Positions 10,824 to 18,191 of a stretch of DNA of 64,000 bases are shown one piece after another; position 1 is the first letter of the stretch; each line of letters begins with the position of its first letter. A program made the position numbers and the translations under genes. Below the pieces are notes generated by a model. That model was given only the letters and a program-made list of their open reading frames with translations. It made no database searches and was not told where the DNA came from. This stretch comes from Vibrio sp. (GTDB lineage Bacteria; Pseudomonadota; Gammaproteobacteria; Enterobacterales; Vibrionaceae): positions 6,661-70,660 of the forward strand of contig JAOICL010000001.1 in the NCBI GenBank assembly GCA_028131545.1, in the 5' to 3' direction.

Positions 10824-11456
10824 ATGAACTTTGATTTACAACTTGTACCTCAAACACTCGATATGTTCCACGCTGGTCTCGCTGCCGTCGCTGTGGTCTT
10901 CTTATTTATAGCAATGACTCGTAAACCTCAAACGATTGAAAAGATCGTTGAAAAGCCAGTCGAAAAGATTGTTGAGATTGAAAAAACAGTAGAAAAAATC
11001 GTTGAAGTTGAAAAGGTTGTTGAAGTTGAGAAAGTGATTGAGAAAGTCGTGGAAGTCGAGTCTAAAGTGACAACGGCATCGACGGATTCTGCAATGCAGT
11101 TATTATCACTGATGCAGCAAGAAGCGCGTCTCATCGACTTTTTACAAGAAGATTTAACGGGATTCTCCGATGATGAAGTCGGTGCAGCTGCACGTGTCAT
11201 TCATACTGGTGGTCAAAAAGTATTAAAAGATTATGTGACGTTATTGCATGTTCGCTCTGAAGAAGAAGAAACTCGAATCACCATTGCTGAAGGATTTAAC
11301 CCTCAAGAAGTTCGTTTAACCGGTAATGTGACGGGTTCTGCACCATTCACGGGTATTCTAATCCATAAAGGATGGAGAGCGGCTGAGGTTAAGTTACCAA
11401 AACTGGCTGAAAACTATGACGCATCAATTATTGCTCCTGCTGAGGTGGAACTGTAA
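10824..11456 (+). CDS. DUF2760-type membrane-anchored protein (putative GrpE-like)
   Basis: N-terminal hydrophobic helix; EKIVEV repeats; QLLSLMQQEARLIDFLQEDL and VRLTGNV..HKGWR..IIAPAEVEL motifs; stop overlaps the next ATG (TAATG). Confidence 0.85.
   Translation: MNFDLQLVPQTLDMFHAGLAAVAVVFLFIAMTRKPQTIEKIVEKPVEKIVEIEKTVEKIVEVEKVVEVEKVIEKVVEVESKVTTASTDSAMQLLSLMQQEARLIDFLQEDLTGFSDDEVGAAARVIHTGGQKVLKDYVTLLHVRSEEEETRITIAEGFNPQEVRLTGNVTGSAPFTGILIHKGWRAAEVKLPKLAENYDASIIAPAEVEL
10935..11060 (+). repeat. intragenic (I/V)EK(I/V)VE peptide repeat
   Basis: IEKIVEKPVEKIVEIEKTVEKIVEVEKVVEVEKVIEKVVEVE. Confidence 0.85.
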
Positions 11457-13357
11457 TGGATAATTCTTTACCTAAATTCAGTATTGGTATCGATTTAGGA
11501 ACAACACACTGTGTTTTATCCTATCTAGATACAACCAATGAAGACGCTCAAGTTCAAGTTATGGGTATTCCACAACTGACAACCCCGGGTAATGTTGAAG
11601 AAAATACGCAACTTAGCTCATTTTTATATCAACCACATGAAAATGAATTAGCCTCTGATACGCTAGTTCTACCATGGAGTGAAGAACCGAAAGCGCTAGT
11701 GGGTGCGATTGCACGTAATCTAGGTTCTAAAACACCGATTCGTTTAGTGTCGAGCGCAAAATCTTGGTTATGTCACAGTGAAATCAATCGTCGAGAGGCT
11801 TTTCTCCCTGCAGGTAGCCCTGAAGAAGTGACAAAAGTGTCTCCTTTGCGTGCCACTGAGTTATACCTAGAACACCTAAAGAACGCATGGAATCACCAAA
11901 ATCCTGAGCATACTCTTGAAGAGCAAGATGTCACGATTACCGTTCCTGCATCTTTTGATCCAGCTGCAAGAGATTTAACCGCTGAAGCCGCTCGTAACGT
12001 TGGCATGCAGCACCTAACTCTGCTTGAAGAGCCACAAGCGGCTTTGTACAACTGGATTGATAACCGCCAAGAAGCTTGGCGCGATGAAGTCGCAGTGGGT
12101 GACATTGTTCTCGTTGTTGATGTTGGTGGCGGTACTACGGATTTATCTCTTGTCGAAGTCACTGAAGACGAAGGTAATCTCGTGCTCAACCGTATTGCTG
12201 TTGGTGAGCATATTTTACTCGGCGGCGATAATATGGATTTAGCTCTCGCCTTCCGTCTCAAAGTCAAACTCGCAGAACAAGGTAAAGCGCTTCAACCTTG
12301 GCAAATACAAGCGATGACTCATGCTTGTCGAGATGCAAAAGAAGCACTATTAAATGATTCTGAGCTGCAATCGGTTCCGATTACTGTTCCTAGTCGTGGT
12401 TCAAAATTGCTTGGCGCTACATTAAAAACCGAATTAACGCAGGAAGAAGTTCAGCAAACCTTAGTGGATGGCTTTTTCCCTCAAGTGTCTATTTCAGATC
12501 ACCCAGTACAAAAGTCACGCGGTGCCCTCACTAAGATGGGACTACCTTATGCACAAGATGCTGGTATTACTCGTCATATTGCCGCTTTCTTATCAAAGCA
12601 AGCAAACGCGAATACAGATTCAGATTCATCAAATACTGACTATGACCCATTTGGCGGTATGTCGGGCATTCCGGGTATGGAAGAATCGACACCAACAGAT
12701 TTTATCAAGCCTACCGTGGTGTTATATAACGGCGGCGTTTTAAAATCGGATCTTTTAGCTAACCGCCTATCAGACACCATTAATCAATGGTTAACTGACG
12801 CAGAGGCCAAACCAGCAAAACGCTTAGAAGGTGTTGACCTTGATCTCGCGGTAGCCAGTGGCGCATCCTATTATGGATCAGTACGTCGTGGACAAGGCGT
12901 TCGTATACGTGGTGGTATTGCCTCTTCTTATTATGTTGGCATTGAAAGCGCAATGCCTGCCATCCCTGGAATGGCTATTCCTTTAGAAGCCATTTGTGTG
13001 GCTCCATTTGGTATGGAAGAAGGATCTCAAGTGACGGTTCCAAATCAAGAGTTTGGGTTAGTCATTGGCGAACCCGTTCACTTCCAATTCTATGGTTCGA
13101 CCGTTCGTCGTGACGATGAAGCGGGAGTGCATCTGGATTTTTGGAATGAAGGTGAACTTGAAGAGCTACCTGAAATTCACGCAACGTTGTCAGCGGAAGA
13201 TGGACGTAAGCAGGGAGACATTGTTCCTGTGACATTAGCTTCACGCGTTACAGAGCTTGGAACATTGCAATTAGAGGCCATCGCCTCCGACAATGGCCAA
13301 CGTTGGCATGTTGAATTCGATGTCCGTGAAGATACGCCATCGAGCGAAACTGAGTAA
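11456..13357 (+). CDS. atypical Hsp70/DnaK-family ATPase (copy 1)
   Basis: GIDLGTT, AKSWL, TVPASFD, EEPQAA, DVGGGTTDLS, LGGDNMD and NGG actin-like ATPase motifs. Confidence 0.9.
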   Translation: MDNSLPKFSIGIDLGTTHCVLSYLDTTNEDAQVQVMGIPQLTTPGNVEENTQLSSFLYQPHENELASDTLVLPWSEEPKALVGAIARNLGSKTPIRLVSSAKSWLCHSEINRREAFLPAGSPEEVTKVSPLRATELYLEHLKNAWNHQNPEHTLEEQDVTITVPASFDPAARDLTAEAARNVGMQHLTLLEEPQAALYNWIDNRQEAWRDEVAVGDIVLVVDVGGGTTDLSLVEVTEDEGNLVLNRIAVGEHILLGGDNMDLALAFRLKVKLAEQGKALQPWQIQAMTHACRDAKEALLNDSELQSVPITVPSRGSKLLGATLKTELTQEEVQQTLVDGFFPQVSISDHPVQKSRGALTKMGLPYAQDAGITRHIAAFLSKQANANTDSDSSNTDYDPFGGMSGIPGMEESTPTDFIKPTVVLYNGGVLKSDLLANRLSDTINQWLTDAEAKPAKRLEGVDLDLAVASGASYYGSVRRGQGVRIRGGIASSYYVGIESAMPAIPGMAIPLEAICVAPFGMEEGSQVTVPNQEFGLVIGEPVHFQFYGSTVRRDDEAGVHLDFWNEGELEELPEIHATLSAEDGRKQGDIVPVTLASRVTELGTLQLEAIASDNGQRWHVEFDVREDTPSSETE

Positions 13358-13465: not shown

Positions 13466-16303
13466 ATGCCCTCACCTCGTTATCTTGTTGGTATTGATTT
13501 AGGAACTACCAATACCGTCGTTGCTTTTAGCGAAATCACTTCCGATCTAAAAACGGCTCCTGTCTCTATCTTTGAAATAGATCAGCTAATTGGCCCAGGT
13601 GAAGTAGTACGAAAGCCTCTACTTCCCTCTTTTCGCTATCACCCATTAGCCTCTCAATTTGATCGTTCTGATTTAACCCTTCCTTGGGGTGAATCGGTTT
13701 TAGAAGGTGATATTCATCAAGTCATTATCGGATCATGGGCAAGGGAATTAGGGTCTAAAGTCGAGGGGCGACAAATTGCCAGTGCAAAAAGCTGGTTATC
13801 CCATGAAGGTGTTGATAGAGAATCCGATATTTTGCCTTGGGCAGCGGCACAGGATGTAGAAAAAGTCTCTCCCGTTATCGCCAGTGCTAGCTATATCAAT
13901 CACATCAAACATTCTTGGAATCATCATAATCCAATCAATCGTTTAGAAGACCAAGATGTGGTCATTACGATTCCAGCTTCCTTTGATGAAACCGCTCGAT
14001 CATTAACCTTAAAAGCGGCAAATCAGGCTGGGTTACATAACATTGTCTTACTCGAAGAACCTCAAGCGGTTTGTTATGACTGGTACGCTAGGCATATAGA
14101 CCACGCGACTGAACAATTACAAGATATCCCATTAATACTGGTATGTGATGTGGGTGGTGGTACAACCGATCTCAGTTTGATTGAAGCCAGCTCTAAAGAT
14201 AATGCCTTAAAATTGAACCGAATTGGTGTTGGTGAGCACTTAATGCTAGGCGGTGATAATATTGACTTAGCATTGGCTCACTTAGCTGAGCAACGCTTTA
14301 GTAACACGAAAAAATTAAATGCGGCGAATCTCACCAAGTTAATTCAGCAAACGAGAAAAGCAAAAGAATTGCTTTTACAAGTTAACTCACCTGAGCAAGT
14401 TAAGATCACGATGTTAGGCAGTGGTTCAAAATTGTTAGGCGGTACAAGGAGTGTTGCTTTAGAAAAATCAGAAGCCAACAATATTATCTTCGATGGTTTC
14501 TTCCCCCTGTCTGATTTTAATGCTCTACCGGATACCCGACGTAGTGCCGTTGTCGAGTTTGGTTTGCCCTATGCTTCTGAGCCAGCTGTTAGTAAACATA
14601 TTGCGGCTTTTTTACATCAACATCAGCACGTTTCAGCCTCTGCGTTACAGGGTCACCAAGATGAGAAAACAGAGGAACCTGCTTTACCCGTCGGCTTATT
14701 GCTCAATGGGGGTGTTTTTAACAGTCCTTTAGTGACGGAACGGTTAGAAGAACTGCTAAAAAGCTGGAAAGGCACGCCTTGTACACTACTAGATAATCCT
14801 CATCCTGATTTATCTGTCGCTTTCGGCGCCGTCGCTTTTAATAAAGCAAGACGCGGTGCCGGTGTAAAAATTGGTGGCGGTAGCGCACGATCTTATTTCT
14901 TACATCTACCTGAAAAAAATAAGTTAGGTAAGGCTCTGTGCTTACTCGCTAAAGGAACAGAGGAAGGACAAGAAGTTCGCCTGACTGGCCGTCGATTTAA
15001 TCTAACGCTTGGTGAACCCGTTAAATTTAACTTATTGACGACCACACACGATACCTTAAATAATGATCAACGCATCCAAAATGGATTATTAGTGGATGTC
15101 GACCCTGATATATTCAAGGCGCTACCTCCTTATATATCCACTCTGGATAGCTTAGGAAAAGAGCTACAGGAAAATCAAAAAGAACGTATTGAAGTCACCT
15201 TAGCAAGCCAATTATCAGAAATCGGTACGCTAAAATTAGACTGTGTCTCAAATGAGTTCGATCAACATTCAAATAAAGACGTTGAACAGCGTTGGAATTT
15301 AGAGTTTGAAGTCAGGAACCAACAAGCCACGGAAGAAGCCGATGCAGAAGATAACCTGCCTCCACGCTTTAAAGAAGCGGCGGCGTTAATATCTCATTCG
15401 TATAGCGGTAATAAAAAAAATACGGATGTAAAAAGCATTAAAGCTCTGACCAAAGATATTGAAAAGCACATTGGTAAACGCGACAACTGGGATTTTAATA
15501 CCTCAAGGCAAATATTTGATACCTTAATGCTTGGGCGAAAGCGCCGTCGTCGCTCTACACATCATGAAAAGCAATGGTTGCGATTAGCTGGATTTACTCT
15601 ACGTCCTGGCTTTGGTTCACCTACAGATACTTGGCGTATTGAGCAGATTTGGTCTTTGTACAGTCAAGACATTCATTTCAAAGACCATCAAGGCTGGACG
15701 GATTGGTGGGTATGCTGGAGACGAATTGCTGGAGGCTTGAATCAAGAACAACAAGAAACCATTCTTTCTGATATTGCAAAGTACTTGCACCCTGGAGCAA
15801 TGAAAAGTCAGCAATCAGCGAAAGCCGCTCATGAGATTGGTTATGAATCAATGGTAAGGCTCGCGGCATCATTAGAGCACCTTGATATCGAAGATAAAAC
15901 TCTGTTATCAAATTGGTTTATGAATAAAGCGCAAACCGGTAAACAATTTAAACAAGCACATTGGTGGGCATTAGGCCGACTTGCCTCTCGTAGCATGTTA
16001 TATAGCGGTAATAACACGGTCATACCAAGAGCGCAGGTTGAACAATGGTTACCGACTGTATTACAACAAGATTGGAAAGACGAACCCATGGCTGGCTTTG
16101 CTGCCGTCATGATGTCGAGAATGACGGGCGATCGTACTCTGGATATTTCAGATGACATCCGTAATCACATCATCAAAAAATTGAAAGAGAGCAAAGTTCC
16201 ACAATCTTGGATAGAAATGGTTTCTGAAGTCAAAGAGCTCGATAATCAAGAAGCTCAAAAGATTTTTGGTGATACAATTCCGGCAGGGTTGATTTTACTT
16301 TAA
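13466..16303 (+). CDS. atypical Hsp70/DnaK-family ATPase with C-terminal extension (DUF3731-type)
   Basis: GIDLGTTN, TIPASFD, EEPQA, DVGGGTTDLS and LGGDNID motifs, plus about 300 aa of W/R-rich helical tail (WLRLAGFTLRPGFG, WWALGRL). Confidence 0.9.
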   Translation: MPSPRYLVGIDLGTTNTVVAFSEITSDLKTAPVSIFEIDQLIGPGEVVRKPLLPSFRYHPLASQFDRSDLTLPWGESVLEGDIHQVIIGSWARELGSKVEGRQIASAKSWLSHEGVDRESDILPWAAAQDVEKVSPVIASASYINHIKHSWNHHNPINRLEDQDVVITIPASFDETARSLTLKAANQAGLHNIVLLEEPQAVCYDWYARHIDHATEQLQDIPLILVCDVGGGTTDLSLIEASSKDNALKLNRIGVGEHLMLGGDNIDLALAHLAEQRFSNTKKLNAANLTKLIQQTRKAKELLLQVNSPEQVKITMLGSGSKLLGGTRSVALEKSEANNIIFDGFFPLSDFNALPDTRRSAVVEFGLPYASEPAVSKHIAAFLHQHQHVSASALQGHQDEKTEEPALPVGLLLNGGVFNSPLVTERLEELLKSWKGTPCTLLDNPHPDLSVAFGAVAFNKARRGAGVKIGGGSARSYFLHLPEKNKLGKALCLLAKGTEEGQEVRLTGRRFNLTLGEPVKFNLLTTTHDTLNNDQRIQNGLLVDVDPDIFKALPPYISTLDSLGKELQENQKERIEVTLASQLSEIGTLKLDCVSNEFDQHSNKDVEQRWNLEFEVRNQQATEEADAEDNLPPRFKEAAALISHSYSGNKKNTDVKSIKALTKDIEKHIGKRDNWDFNTSRQIFDTLMLGRKRRRRSTHHEKQWLRLAGFTLRPGFGSPTDTWRIEQIWSLYSQDIHFKDHQGWTDWWVCWRRIAGGLNQEQQETILSDIAKYLHPGAMKSQQSAKAAHEIGYESMVRLAASLEHLDIEDKTLLSNWFMNKAQTGKQFKQAHWWALGRLASRSMLYSGNNTVIPRAQVEQWLPTVLQQDWKDEPMAGFAAVMMSRMTGDRTLDISDDIRNHIIKKLKESKVPQSWIEMVSEVKELDNQEAQKIFGDTIPAGLILL

Positions 16304-16969: not shown

Positions 16970-17024
16970 AAAGAATAGATAATAAAAAAGCGCCTTATAG
17001 GCGCTTTTTTATTATCTATTCTTT
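16970..17024. terminator. bidirectional terminator, 26-bp perfect inverted repeat
   Basis: aaagaatagataataaaaaagcgcct-tat-aggcgcttttttattatctattcttt. Confidence 0.85.
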
Positions 17025-17642: not shown

Positions 17643-18191
17643 ATGAACCAAGATAAATTTACCAATATATATCGTCTTCCAGGGTCAATACAGATTCGCA
17701 TCGGAAAGTGGCAGCAAACATTCCGTGGCACATCGGATCTCGTCCTGCATAATGCGATTCAGGTACGTAATCAGCAATTTAAACAATTCAATTTTTTACC
17801 AAAGGGATGGTGCGTAACTCCGTTCCTTGAAACTGATATCTCGATTACACATCATGATAAATACATCCAAACCGCAATGAGAACTCTCATTGACCGTAAA
17901 GTGTCCTATAAGCGAGTGTATTTATCACGAGTGCCATTAGAAGAAGCTGAGCCTCTGCTGAGAAGATATAAAGAAGAGTGGATAAGGAAACACAATCGAG
18001 TGGCAAAACAGTATAATCAGATCAAGAAAAAAGAGCTTCTCTTTCATGCTCGAGAAGAACAAGAAACATTATACCCTTCAATACCAGTACAAAAGTTTGA
18101 TAAGACTTTATGGAATAAACTCGTCGTGTCAGATTTTGGTCCCGCTAAAAAATATTCGAACCCGTATTTTGTGAAAAAATCTGATTTCTAA
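17643..18191 (+). CDS. basic conserved Vibrio protein, putative DNA-binding regulator
   Basis: 182 aa K/R-rich ORF with a long AT-rich upstream region; the N-terminal beta-beta-beta-alpha pattern is AP2-like by eye. Confidence 0.7.
   Translation: MNQDKFTNIYRLPGSIQIRIGKWQQTFRGTSDLVLHNAIQVRNQQFKQFNFLPKGWCVTPFLETDISITHHDKYIQTAMRTLIDRKVSYKRVYLSRVPLEEAEPLLRRYKEEWIRKHNRVAKQYNQIKKKELLFHAREEQETLYPSIPVQKFDKTLWNKLVVSDFGPAKKYSNPYFVKKSDF

Follow-up and report, generated by a model that had tools for sequence, protein, structure and literature searches.

A DUF2760 protein encoded beside two Hsp70 genes in Vibrio has a predicted GrpE-like fold and may be a dedicated exchange factor

To our knowledge, GrpE is the only exchange-factor family that has been described for bacterial Hsp70s. 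In published complexes, the GrpE head and short helices contact Hsp70 subdomains IB and IIB, and the long helix contacts subdomain IA and the substrate domain (PMC10803776, PMC11685456). The FDP proline of human GrpE (P172, whose position in the motif was fixed by alignment in this analysis) contacts subdomain IB (PMC11685456). In Mycobacterium tuberculosis GrpE, mutation of the long helix nearly abolished both binding and exchange, mutation of a short-helix patch reduced exchange, and mutation of a beta-sheet patch had little effect (PMC10803776). Not every Hsp70 uses GrpE. The review PMC8215388 states that HscA and HscC, neither of which uses GrpE, carry a deletion of the GrpE signature in their subdomain IIB hairpin, and that fast spontaneous ADP release, as in HscA, which has no need of GrpE, is tied to the loss of the K55-E267 and R56-E264 salt bridges. 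The same review describes Escherichia coli HscC as a specialized Hsp70 with the membrane-anchored co-chaperones DjlB and DjlC encoded nearby, and reports that localized exchange factors are known in eukaryotes and that E. coli GrpE is evenly spread through the cell (PMC8215388).

The arrangement described here, a DUF2760 gene followed by genes for two Hsp70-family proteins, the second of which carries a C-terminal DUF3731, has left few traces in the literature. Neither DUF2760 nor DUF3731, nor their accessions PF10816 and PF12531, is mentioned in the main text of the literature searched, the scope of which excludes subscription journals and most supplements, and the papers retrieved for a GrpE-like fold or domain were all unrelated. 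We take V. cholerae VC1373-1375 to be the same cassette. Two papers report that the VC1373-1375 operon, with a DnaK-related gene, is repressed in biofilm (PMC9201469) and that the VC1375 promoter is activated by HapR (PMC10328515). In Myxococcus xanthus, MXAN_5321 (DUF2760), MXAN_5322, and MXAN_5323 (Hsp70 family) lie side by side and have similar transcription (supplement of PMC8265645). Strains with MXAN_5323 deleted sporulated less and survived peroxide less well, an outcome shared by four other hsp70 deletions; the deletion had no clear effect at high temperature, and MXAN_5323 did not replace E. coli dnaK (PMC8265645).

In the window (the whole stretch of 64,000 nucleotides of a Vibrio sp. 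contig that we analyzed), the DUF2760 gene is at positions 10824 to 11456 on the + strand, a 210-aa ORF (Pfam PF10816). Its stop codon shares one base with the ATG of the next gene (TAATG), which encodes Hsp70-A, a divergent Hsp70-family ATPase of 633 aa (11456 to 13357, +; PF00012, E = 7.5e-17). Hsp70-B, a 945-aa Hsp70-family ATPase with a C-terminal DUF3731, follows at 13466 to 16303 (+; PF00012 and PF12531). The DUF2760 protein is a full-length member of PF10816, and its cassette (DUF2760/Hsp70/Hsp70-DUF3731) has the standard gene order. Past Hsp70-B is a 1.3-kb stretch without an ORF longer than 61 aa, which contains a 20-pair inverted repeat (16974 to 17020) that scores as a terminator on both strands, and at 17643 to 18191 there is a basic 182-aa ORF with no Pfam match at E values up to 10. 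A promoter scan found 15 sites, compared with 18.7 in shuffles, which is no excess.

The closest named relatives of the DUF2760 protein are Vibrio records (82% identity). A Pfam scan of the 210-aa protein assigned DUF2760 alone, with a match to PF10816 over residues 87 to 209 (E = 2e-53; 179.9 bits against a cut-off of 25) that covers essentially the full model (positions 2 to 124). The region that drew attention in the initial annotation, 11061 to 11453, is open throughout in translation and corresponds to residues 80 to 210, the last 131 codons; the domain numbering used below counts from protein residue 80. Ahead of this domain are a predicted transmembrane helix (residues 14 to 32, 10863 to 10919, +; Kyte-Doolittle 19-mer mean, 2.19), followed by RK, and a V-E-K repeat stalk that forms a low-complexity linker (residues 38 to 79, 10935 to 11060, +). 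The domain itself begins with a two-helix hairpin (domain residues 8 to 29 and 37 to 58, 11082 to 11234, +), delimited from the AlphaFold2 model, the alignment with Thermus thermophilus GrpE, and conservation. It ends in a putative GrpE-type beta head with two insertions (11235 to 11453, +), delimited from the head model, structure matches, and strand-pair coevolution. The head carries the motifs FNP (11295 to 11303), HKGW (11364 to 11375), and PAEVEL (11436 to 11453), all on the + strand.

The proposal that in DUF2760 the long N-terminal coiled coil of GrpE is replaced by a transmembrane helix plus a repeat stalk fits this protein, which has a hydrophobic helix plus a stalk in that place, and fits its family only in part. 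Among 1.84 billion representatives, 1,784 relatives were identified at E = 0.001, and N termini could be surveyed in 137 of the best 150 of these (13 were dropped for a short or unrecognized start). A hydrophobic 19-mer scoring at least 1.9 is found in 52 of the 137, an aromatic amphipathic-helix pattern in 62 others, and neither in 23, so that 114 of 137 have a membrane-type N terminus by hydropathy or motif pattern, about half of the family having an amphipathic-looking helix in place of a transmembrane one. The V-E-K stalk occurs in only 5 of 137 homologues and is a lineage feature; in 40 of 137 the linker is more than 30% proline plus alanine. Apart from its Vibrio-type transmembrane helix and V-E-K stalk, the copy in the window does not differ structurally from the rest of the family. 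From these sequences we infer that DUF2760 is attached to the membrane in one of two forms, by a hydrophobic helix or by an amphipathic-looking helix.

The association of DUF2760 with Hsp70-A is very constant. In the best 80 of 591 genome matches, the next Hsp70 gene after DUF2760 is Hsp70-A in 80 of 80 loci, and the two genes overlap by 1 or 4 bases in 74 of them; Hsp70-B is present in 61 of the 67 genome loci with room to show it. A set of 80 metagenome loci, seeded with a distant member of the family, has a cassette Hsp70 downstream in 61, and the other 19 end less than 325 bases from the gene; genome and metagenome loci are related to each other, so these counts are not independent. No DUF2760 gene stands without a cassette Hsp70 among the loci long enough to tell. 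We consider Hsp70-A the most likely candidate for the partner of DUF2760. No fusion to Hsp70 was found among the best 120 of 508 longer homologues (the longest is 404 aa), and no DUF2760 relative was confirmed in viral contigs.

Several loci vary in the rest of the cassette. Six (L086, L089, L092, L104, L113, and L124) have DUF2760 and Hsp70-A with no Hsp70-B within 7.7 to 8 kb downstream. At L133 (3244 to 6128), Hsp70-B is present as two ORFs (676 and 276 aa), the second of which matches the C-terminal part only, reflecting either a natural split or a sequencing break. At L184 (3707 to 6448), Hsp70-B is encoded in the reverse orientation relative to DUF2760 at a distance of 1.2 kb, and the interval contains no Hsp70-A ORF.

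As pure sequence, the resemblance to GrpE is not above chance. The GrpE family PF01025 does not match the DUF2760 protein at E values up to 10 in the Pfam scan, and Pfam, NCBIfam, and PDB-sequence searches (phmmer and profile) returned no GrpE match. The profile comparison of the HHpred type that had been suggested gave no significant score (P values of 0.05 to 0.35). By hhalign, 145 DUF2760 rows against 30 proteobacterial GrpEs gave P values of 0.34 to 0.35, which is not significant, and 421 DUF2760 rows against GrpE C-terminal parts gave P values of 0.19 (27 canonical GrpEs), 0.054 (44 divergent GrpEs), and 0.088 (71 pooled), with block-shuffled controls scoring at least as high as the real alignment in 12 of 40, 10 of 40, and 13 of 40 cases, respectively. 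Under a relaxed threshold, hhalign does produce colinear alignments (end of helix 1, helix 2, FDP, G-aromatic, and PA), which carry no evidential weight alone. The ESM Atlas returned DUF2760 clusters only and, with those left out, no usable match.

The strings on which the GrpE proposal was based, QLLSLMQQEARLIDFL, ARVIHTGGQKVLKDY, EGFNPQEVRL, GILIHKGWR, and IIAPAEVEL, are all present in the translation in that order. The claim that FNP, KGW, and PAxVxL follow the order found in GrpE stands insofar as the motifs are colinear with those of GrpE and conserved in the family; as a sequence match, hhalign does not place it above chance. In 421 aligned homologues, F79 is conserved in 88%, D/N80 in 96%, and P81 in only 52%, H-x-G-W is found in 421 of 421, and P/A/Q-A-E-V in 407 of 421. 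Alignment with E. coli GrpE pairs P81 with P151, H102 with Q175, G104 with G177, and L131 with V192. The hairpin also contains near-invariant residues (Q19, R23, D26, F27, D37, G41, R45, and H48).

The predicted fold is more informative. The AlphaFold2 whole-domain model (145 rows; pLDDT, 95.7) has helices at residues 8 to 29 and 37 to 58, as had been expected of the region ahead of the C terminus, followed by strands, and the hairpin sits where GrpE has the end of its long helix and a short helix. In a Foldseek search with the whole domain, nothing reaches E = 0.001, and T. thermophilus GrpE is at rank 25 with the best TM-score (0.31) of the 49 rows shown. When the matches were realigned, T. 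thermophilus GrpE gave the longest alignment of 50 rows (90 residues, model residues 1 to 109 on chain residues 54 to 155; Z = 3.3, rmsd 5.6), and two human GrpEL1 entries were also among the realigned matches. In a wide structure search, the whole domain has no GrpE among 50 rows, which are dominated by generic helical hairpins (best Z, 5.0).

The head was also considered as a separate model (window positions 11226 to 11453), which has a pLDDT of 94.1 (82 to 84 in the other four models) and contains six strands of at least three residues plus a short first strand. Compared with 48,161 representative chains, this model has 49 matches that reach Z = 2 and none that reach Z = 5. The first three ranks are human GrpEL1 (9bls_B; Z = 4.1, rmsd 3.0, 51 residues aligned), E. 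coli GrpE (1dkg_B; Z = 4.0, rmsd 4.1, 56 aligned, model residues 1 to 76 on chain residues 132 to 192), and T. thermophilus GrpE (3a6m_B; Z = 3.2, rmsd 4.3, 55 aligned), and Geobacillus kaustophilus GrpE (4ani_A; Z = 2.6) is at rank 7. The best non-GrpE chain has a Z of 3.0, and the remainder are mostly S1, OB, TRAM, or Tudor barrels. By the scale of the tool, Z = 4 still counts as a common arrangement, and chains less than 1 Z apart share a rank; only the top two GrpE chains are therefore clear of 3.0. Foldseek with the head alone (350,542 chains) placed G. kaustophilus GrpE 4ani_A first (E = 1.1, TM-score 0.38), with 6 GrpE chains among 37 matches and no match at E = 0.001; realignment left 6 of these 37 at Z = 2 or above, and the five entries listed are without exception GrpEs. 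A sequence search found only 9 GrpE entries in the PDB, of which 8gb3, 9qid, and 9qin are on no fold list. As background, a viral structure library gave nothing at E = 0.001 and a best TM-score of 0.31. The GrpE-type architecture that had been proposed is supported by the top matches of the head model in both structure searches, and the check for a missing beta head found, in the predicted fold, one that resembles that of GrpE most closely.

These structure scores are low, too low to identify the fold in a blind search. Their weight comes from GrpE having been named in advance, from the agreement of two programs, from the position of distant GrpEs at the top, and from a match that covers the head end to end. 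One possible alternative is that a small beta domain with no relation to GrpE (S1, TRAM, or SH3-like, perhaps nucleic-acid binding) has converged on this shape and that the motif match is due to chance. This would fit the lack of a significant profile match and the predominance of S1, OB, and TRAM domains from the fourth rank onward (Z values of 2 to 3.0), and AlphaFold2, which was trained on GrpE structures, might be drawn to the GrpE fold. These barrels score below the top GrpE chains but within 1 Z of the third, and none has a Pfam match here. Against convergence, the chains that two programs put on top are GrpEs of several distant lineages, the match runs from end to end and reaches into the preceding helices, the three motifs are in the order of GrpE, and every genome locus examined couples the gene to an Hsp70. 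Moreover, coevolution yields matching strand pairs without AlphaFold. In a mean-field coupling analysis of 421 rows (effective number, 234), the top 45 pairs (z = 3.2 to 6.3, many of them unexplained) include the head pairs L62-A108, L61-I124, N89-V129, and A94-L131 and the hairpin pairs A22-G51 and E21-K53. The head pairs agree with the way strands pair in the GrpE head. Two further pairs, L28-L55 and Q29-K56, do not match the register of the hairpin and may reflect contacts across chains; GrpE itself dimerizes by way of a four-helix bundle. We regard convergence as improbable and conclude, from the models, that DUF2760 is very probably a homologue of the GrpE fold. It is not filed in PF01025 because it lacks both the score and the long helix of that family. 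ECOD, TED, or InterPro may already group the DUF2760 and GrpE folds.

Compared with GrpE and GrpEL1 (PF01025; PDB 1DKG, 3A6M, 4ANI, and 9BLS), DUF2760 likewise is predicted to form a helix-loop-helix and then a small beta head that can be superposed on the GrpE head over its full length, shares the order of the FDP, G-aromatic, and PAxV motifs, and is encoded beside an Hsp70. In contrast, it has no PF01025 score, and structural alignments show only 12 to 20% identity. The long basic coiled-coil helix of GrpE and the disordered tail give way to a membrane-type helix and a low-complexity linker, and helix 1 of DUF2760 is only ~22 residues long. The insertion that had been noted ahead of the last strand is confirmed by the Gly-to-Pro spacing, which is 22 residues in DUF2760; among the GrpEs counted, it is 10 in 26 of the 27 canonical and in all 42 divergent sequences, a difference of 12 residues. 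The second head insertion is an extra strand (RITI) ahead of the FNP motif, the distance from FDP to Gly is 25 residues rather than the 27 to 28 of GrpE, and the end of the protein is an acidic PAEVE rather than RPAMV. DUF2760 retains the parts of GrpE that contact subdomains IB and IIB and is without the long helix that contacts IA and the substrate domain. With this helix missing, exchange by DUF2760 cannot be assumed; any exchange activity would require a different way of gripping its Hsp70.

Specialized GrpEs beside their own Hsp70s are also found as divergent paralogues in operons with a J-like gene and an Hsp70 (e.g., L146, 1099 to 1860). These have RPAQV or RPAEV in the last strand, but unlike DUF2760 they keep the PF01025 score, the long helix, and the GrpE spacing, and their use as a bridge raised the profile match to DUF2760 only to the P value of 0.054 given above, with 10 of 40 shuffles as good. 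The operon at L146 (806 to 3688), which encodes a J-like protein (NPPD for HPD), a divergent GrpE, and a 610-aa Hsp70, is 1.3 kb upstream of a DUF2760 cassette, and at L112 (10769 to 12538) an Hsp70 similar to this 610-aa protein is directly downstream of the cassette. A J-domain pattern had no match in the 160 loci, but the pattern also missed the J-like ORF of L146. Five J-domain matches are present in the genome under study, all on other contigs. The HscC system differs from the DUF2760 cassette in that its anchored partners are J-domain proteins and HscC has no GrpE signature, while here the anchored partner has a predicted GrpE fold and the Hsp70s have a long IIB hairpin.

We aligned 105 Hsp70-A and 75 Hsp70-B sequences with the DnaK and HscA of this genome. 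The residues that match DnaK K70, E171, D194, and T199, which we take to be catalytic, are kept almost without exception in Hsp70-A and Hsp70-B (in 105 of 105 Hsp70-A), which suggests that both are active ATPases. The subdomain IIB hairpin is 35 residues long in 102 of 105 Hsp70-A and 73 of 75 Hsp70-B, compared with 33 in DnaK and 23 in HscA, and a long hairpin favors an exchange factor. On the other hand, the cleft salt bridges of DnaK are lost in both Hsp70s, which counts against an exchange role: the position of E267 is Arg in 104 of 105 Hsp70-A and 61 of 75 Hsp70-B, and that of E264 is mostly His or Tyr in Hsp70-A. The loop around DnaK G32 is longer and changed in the cassette Hsp70s. Both families also have insertions that are absent in DnaK and HscA, among them LPW (lobe I) and GLPYA (lobe II) segments, and Thr is at the position of DnaK R167 in 91 of 105 Hsp70-A. 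Mutual information between DUF2760 and Hsp70-A (106 pairs; effective number, 46) gave no signal: the top pair, I101-N88, is near the expected cleft, but its z of 6.1 is at the level of five partner-swapped controls (5.5 to 6.0).

The lost salt bridges would also fit another job for the same GrpE-derived fold, in which DUF2760 would bind an Hsp70 of the cassette and tether or assemble Hsp70-A and Hsp70-B at the membrane without faster exchange. Such a role would agree with the absence of the long helix on which exchange depends in M. tuberculosis GrpE (PMC10803776), with the prevalence of membrane-type N termini, and with the translational coupling in 74 of 80 loci, which suggests a complex of fixed ratio. 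It accounts less well for what has been retained, since the head and short helices make the IB and IIB contacts of GrpE, mutation of a short-helix patch lowered exchange (PMC10803776), and the Hsp70s have kept the long IIB hairpin. We consider tethering without exchange unlikely, although it is the most serious of the alternatives.

A GrpE fold could also mean that DUF2760 acts, as an exchange factor or a competitor, not on its neighbors, which have altered the residues that DnaK offers GrpE, but on the housekeeping DnaK or some other Hsp70 of the cell. We consider this very improbable. DUF2760 is without the basic long helix needed for DnaK binding (PMC10803776), it never occurs without a cassette Hsp70 in loci long enough to tell, and a canonical GrpE is also present in 19 of 19 complete genomes that have DUF2760, which indicates that DUF2760 is an addition to GrpE and not a replacement for it. 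In 301 genomes of the phylum, DUF2760 is found in 20 and DUF3731 in 19, all 19 within those 20, and DUF3731 is found in 0 of the 281 others. In the assembly under study, which is 73% complete, a six-frame search did not find GrpE (PF01025); all 6 complete Vibrio genomes encode it, and its absence here most likely reflects a gap. The dnaK of this genome (contig C97, 1138 to 3027) has a Met start without the N-terminal GIDLG phosphate motif and an in-frame stop shortly upstream, possibly an assembly error.

Of the readings weighed here (dedicated exchange on Hsp70-A, tethering without exchange, convergence, and action on DnaK), we favor the first. We put the probability that DUF2760 is a dedicated exchange factor of the neighboring Hsp70-A, and possibly of Hsp70-B, at roughly 50%. 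DUF2760 would be a remote GrpE homologue reduced to a helical hairpin and a beta head, probably tethered to the inner membrane through its N-terminal helix, and it would exchange nucleotide on Hsp70-A and possibly Hsp70-B. The affinity that GrpE draws from its long helix would be replaced by the two head insertions, the invariant hairpin residues, and tethering. The housekeeping DnaK would not be served by DUF2760 and would keep its own GrpE. A more specific proposal, which we make only tentatively and hold somewhat less likely than not to be correct in full, is that this membrane-tethered GrpE restricts the resetting of its own dedicated Hsp70 pair to the inner membrane and manages without a long helix by means of joint changes in its head and in the Hsp70 cleft (the acidic last strand and invariant His on the head, and Arg for DnaK E267 in the cleft).

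The DUF2760 cassette is real, widespread, and already cataloged as a DUF; the addition made here is the predicted fold. It is present in all 7 genomes of this genus that were searched and, judged by record title, also in Oxalobacteraceae, Methylococcales, Myxococcales, and others. If the exchange role is true, a membrane anchor that replaces the long helix of GrpE would be a bacterial case of localized exchange, and the family would be a natural test of which GrpE parts are sufficient for opening the Hsp70 cleft. A widespread, unstudied three-gene cassette thereby gains a concrete proposed function that is cheap to assay.
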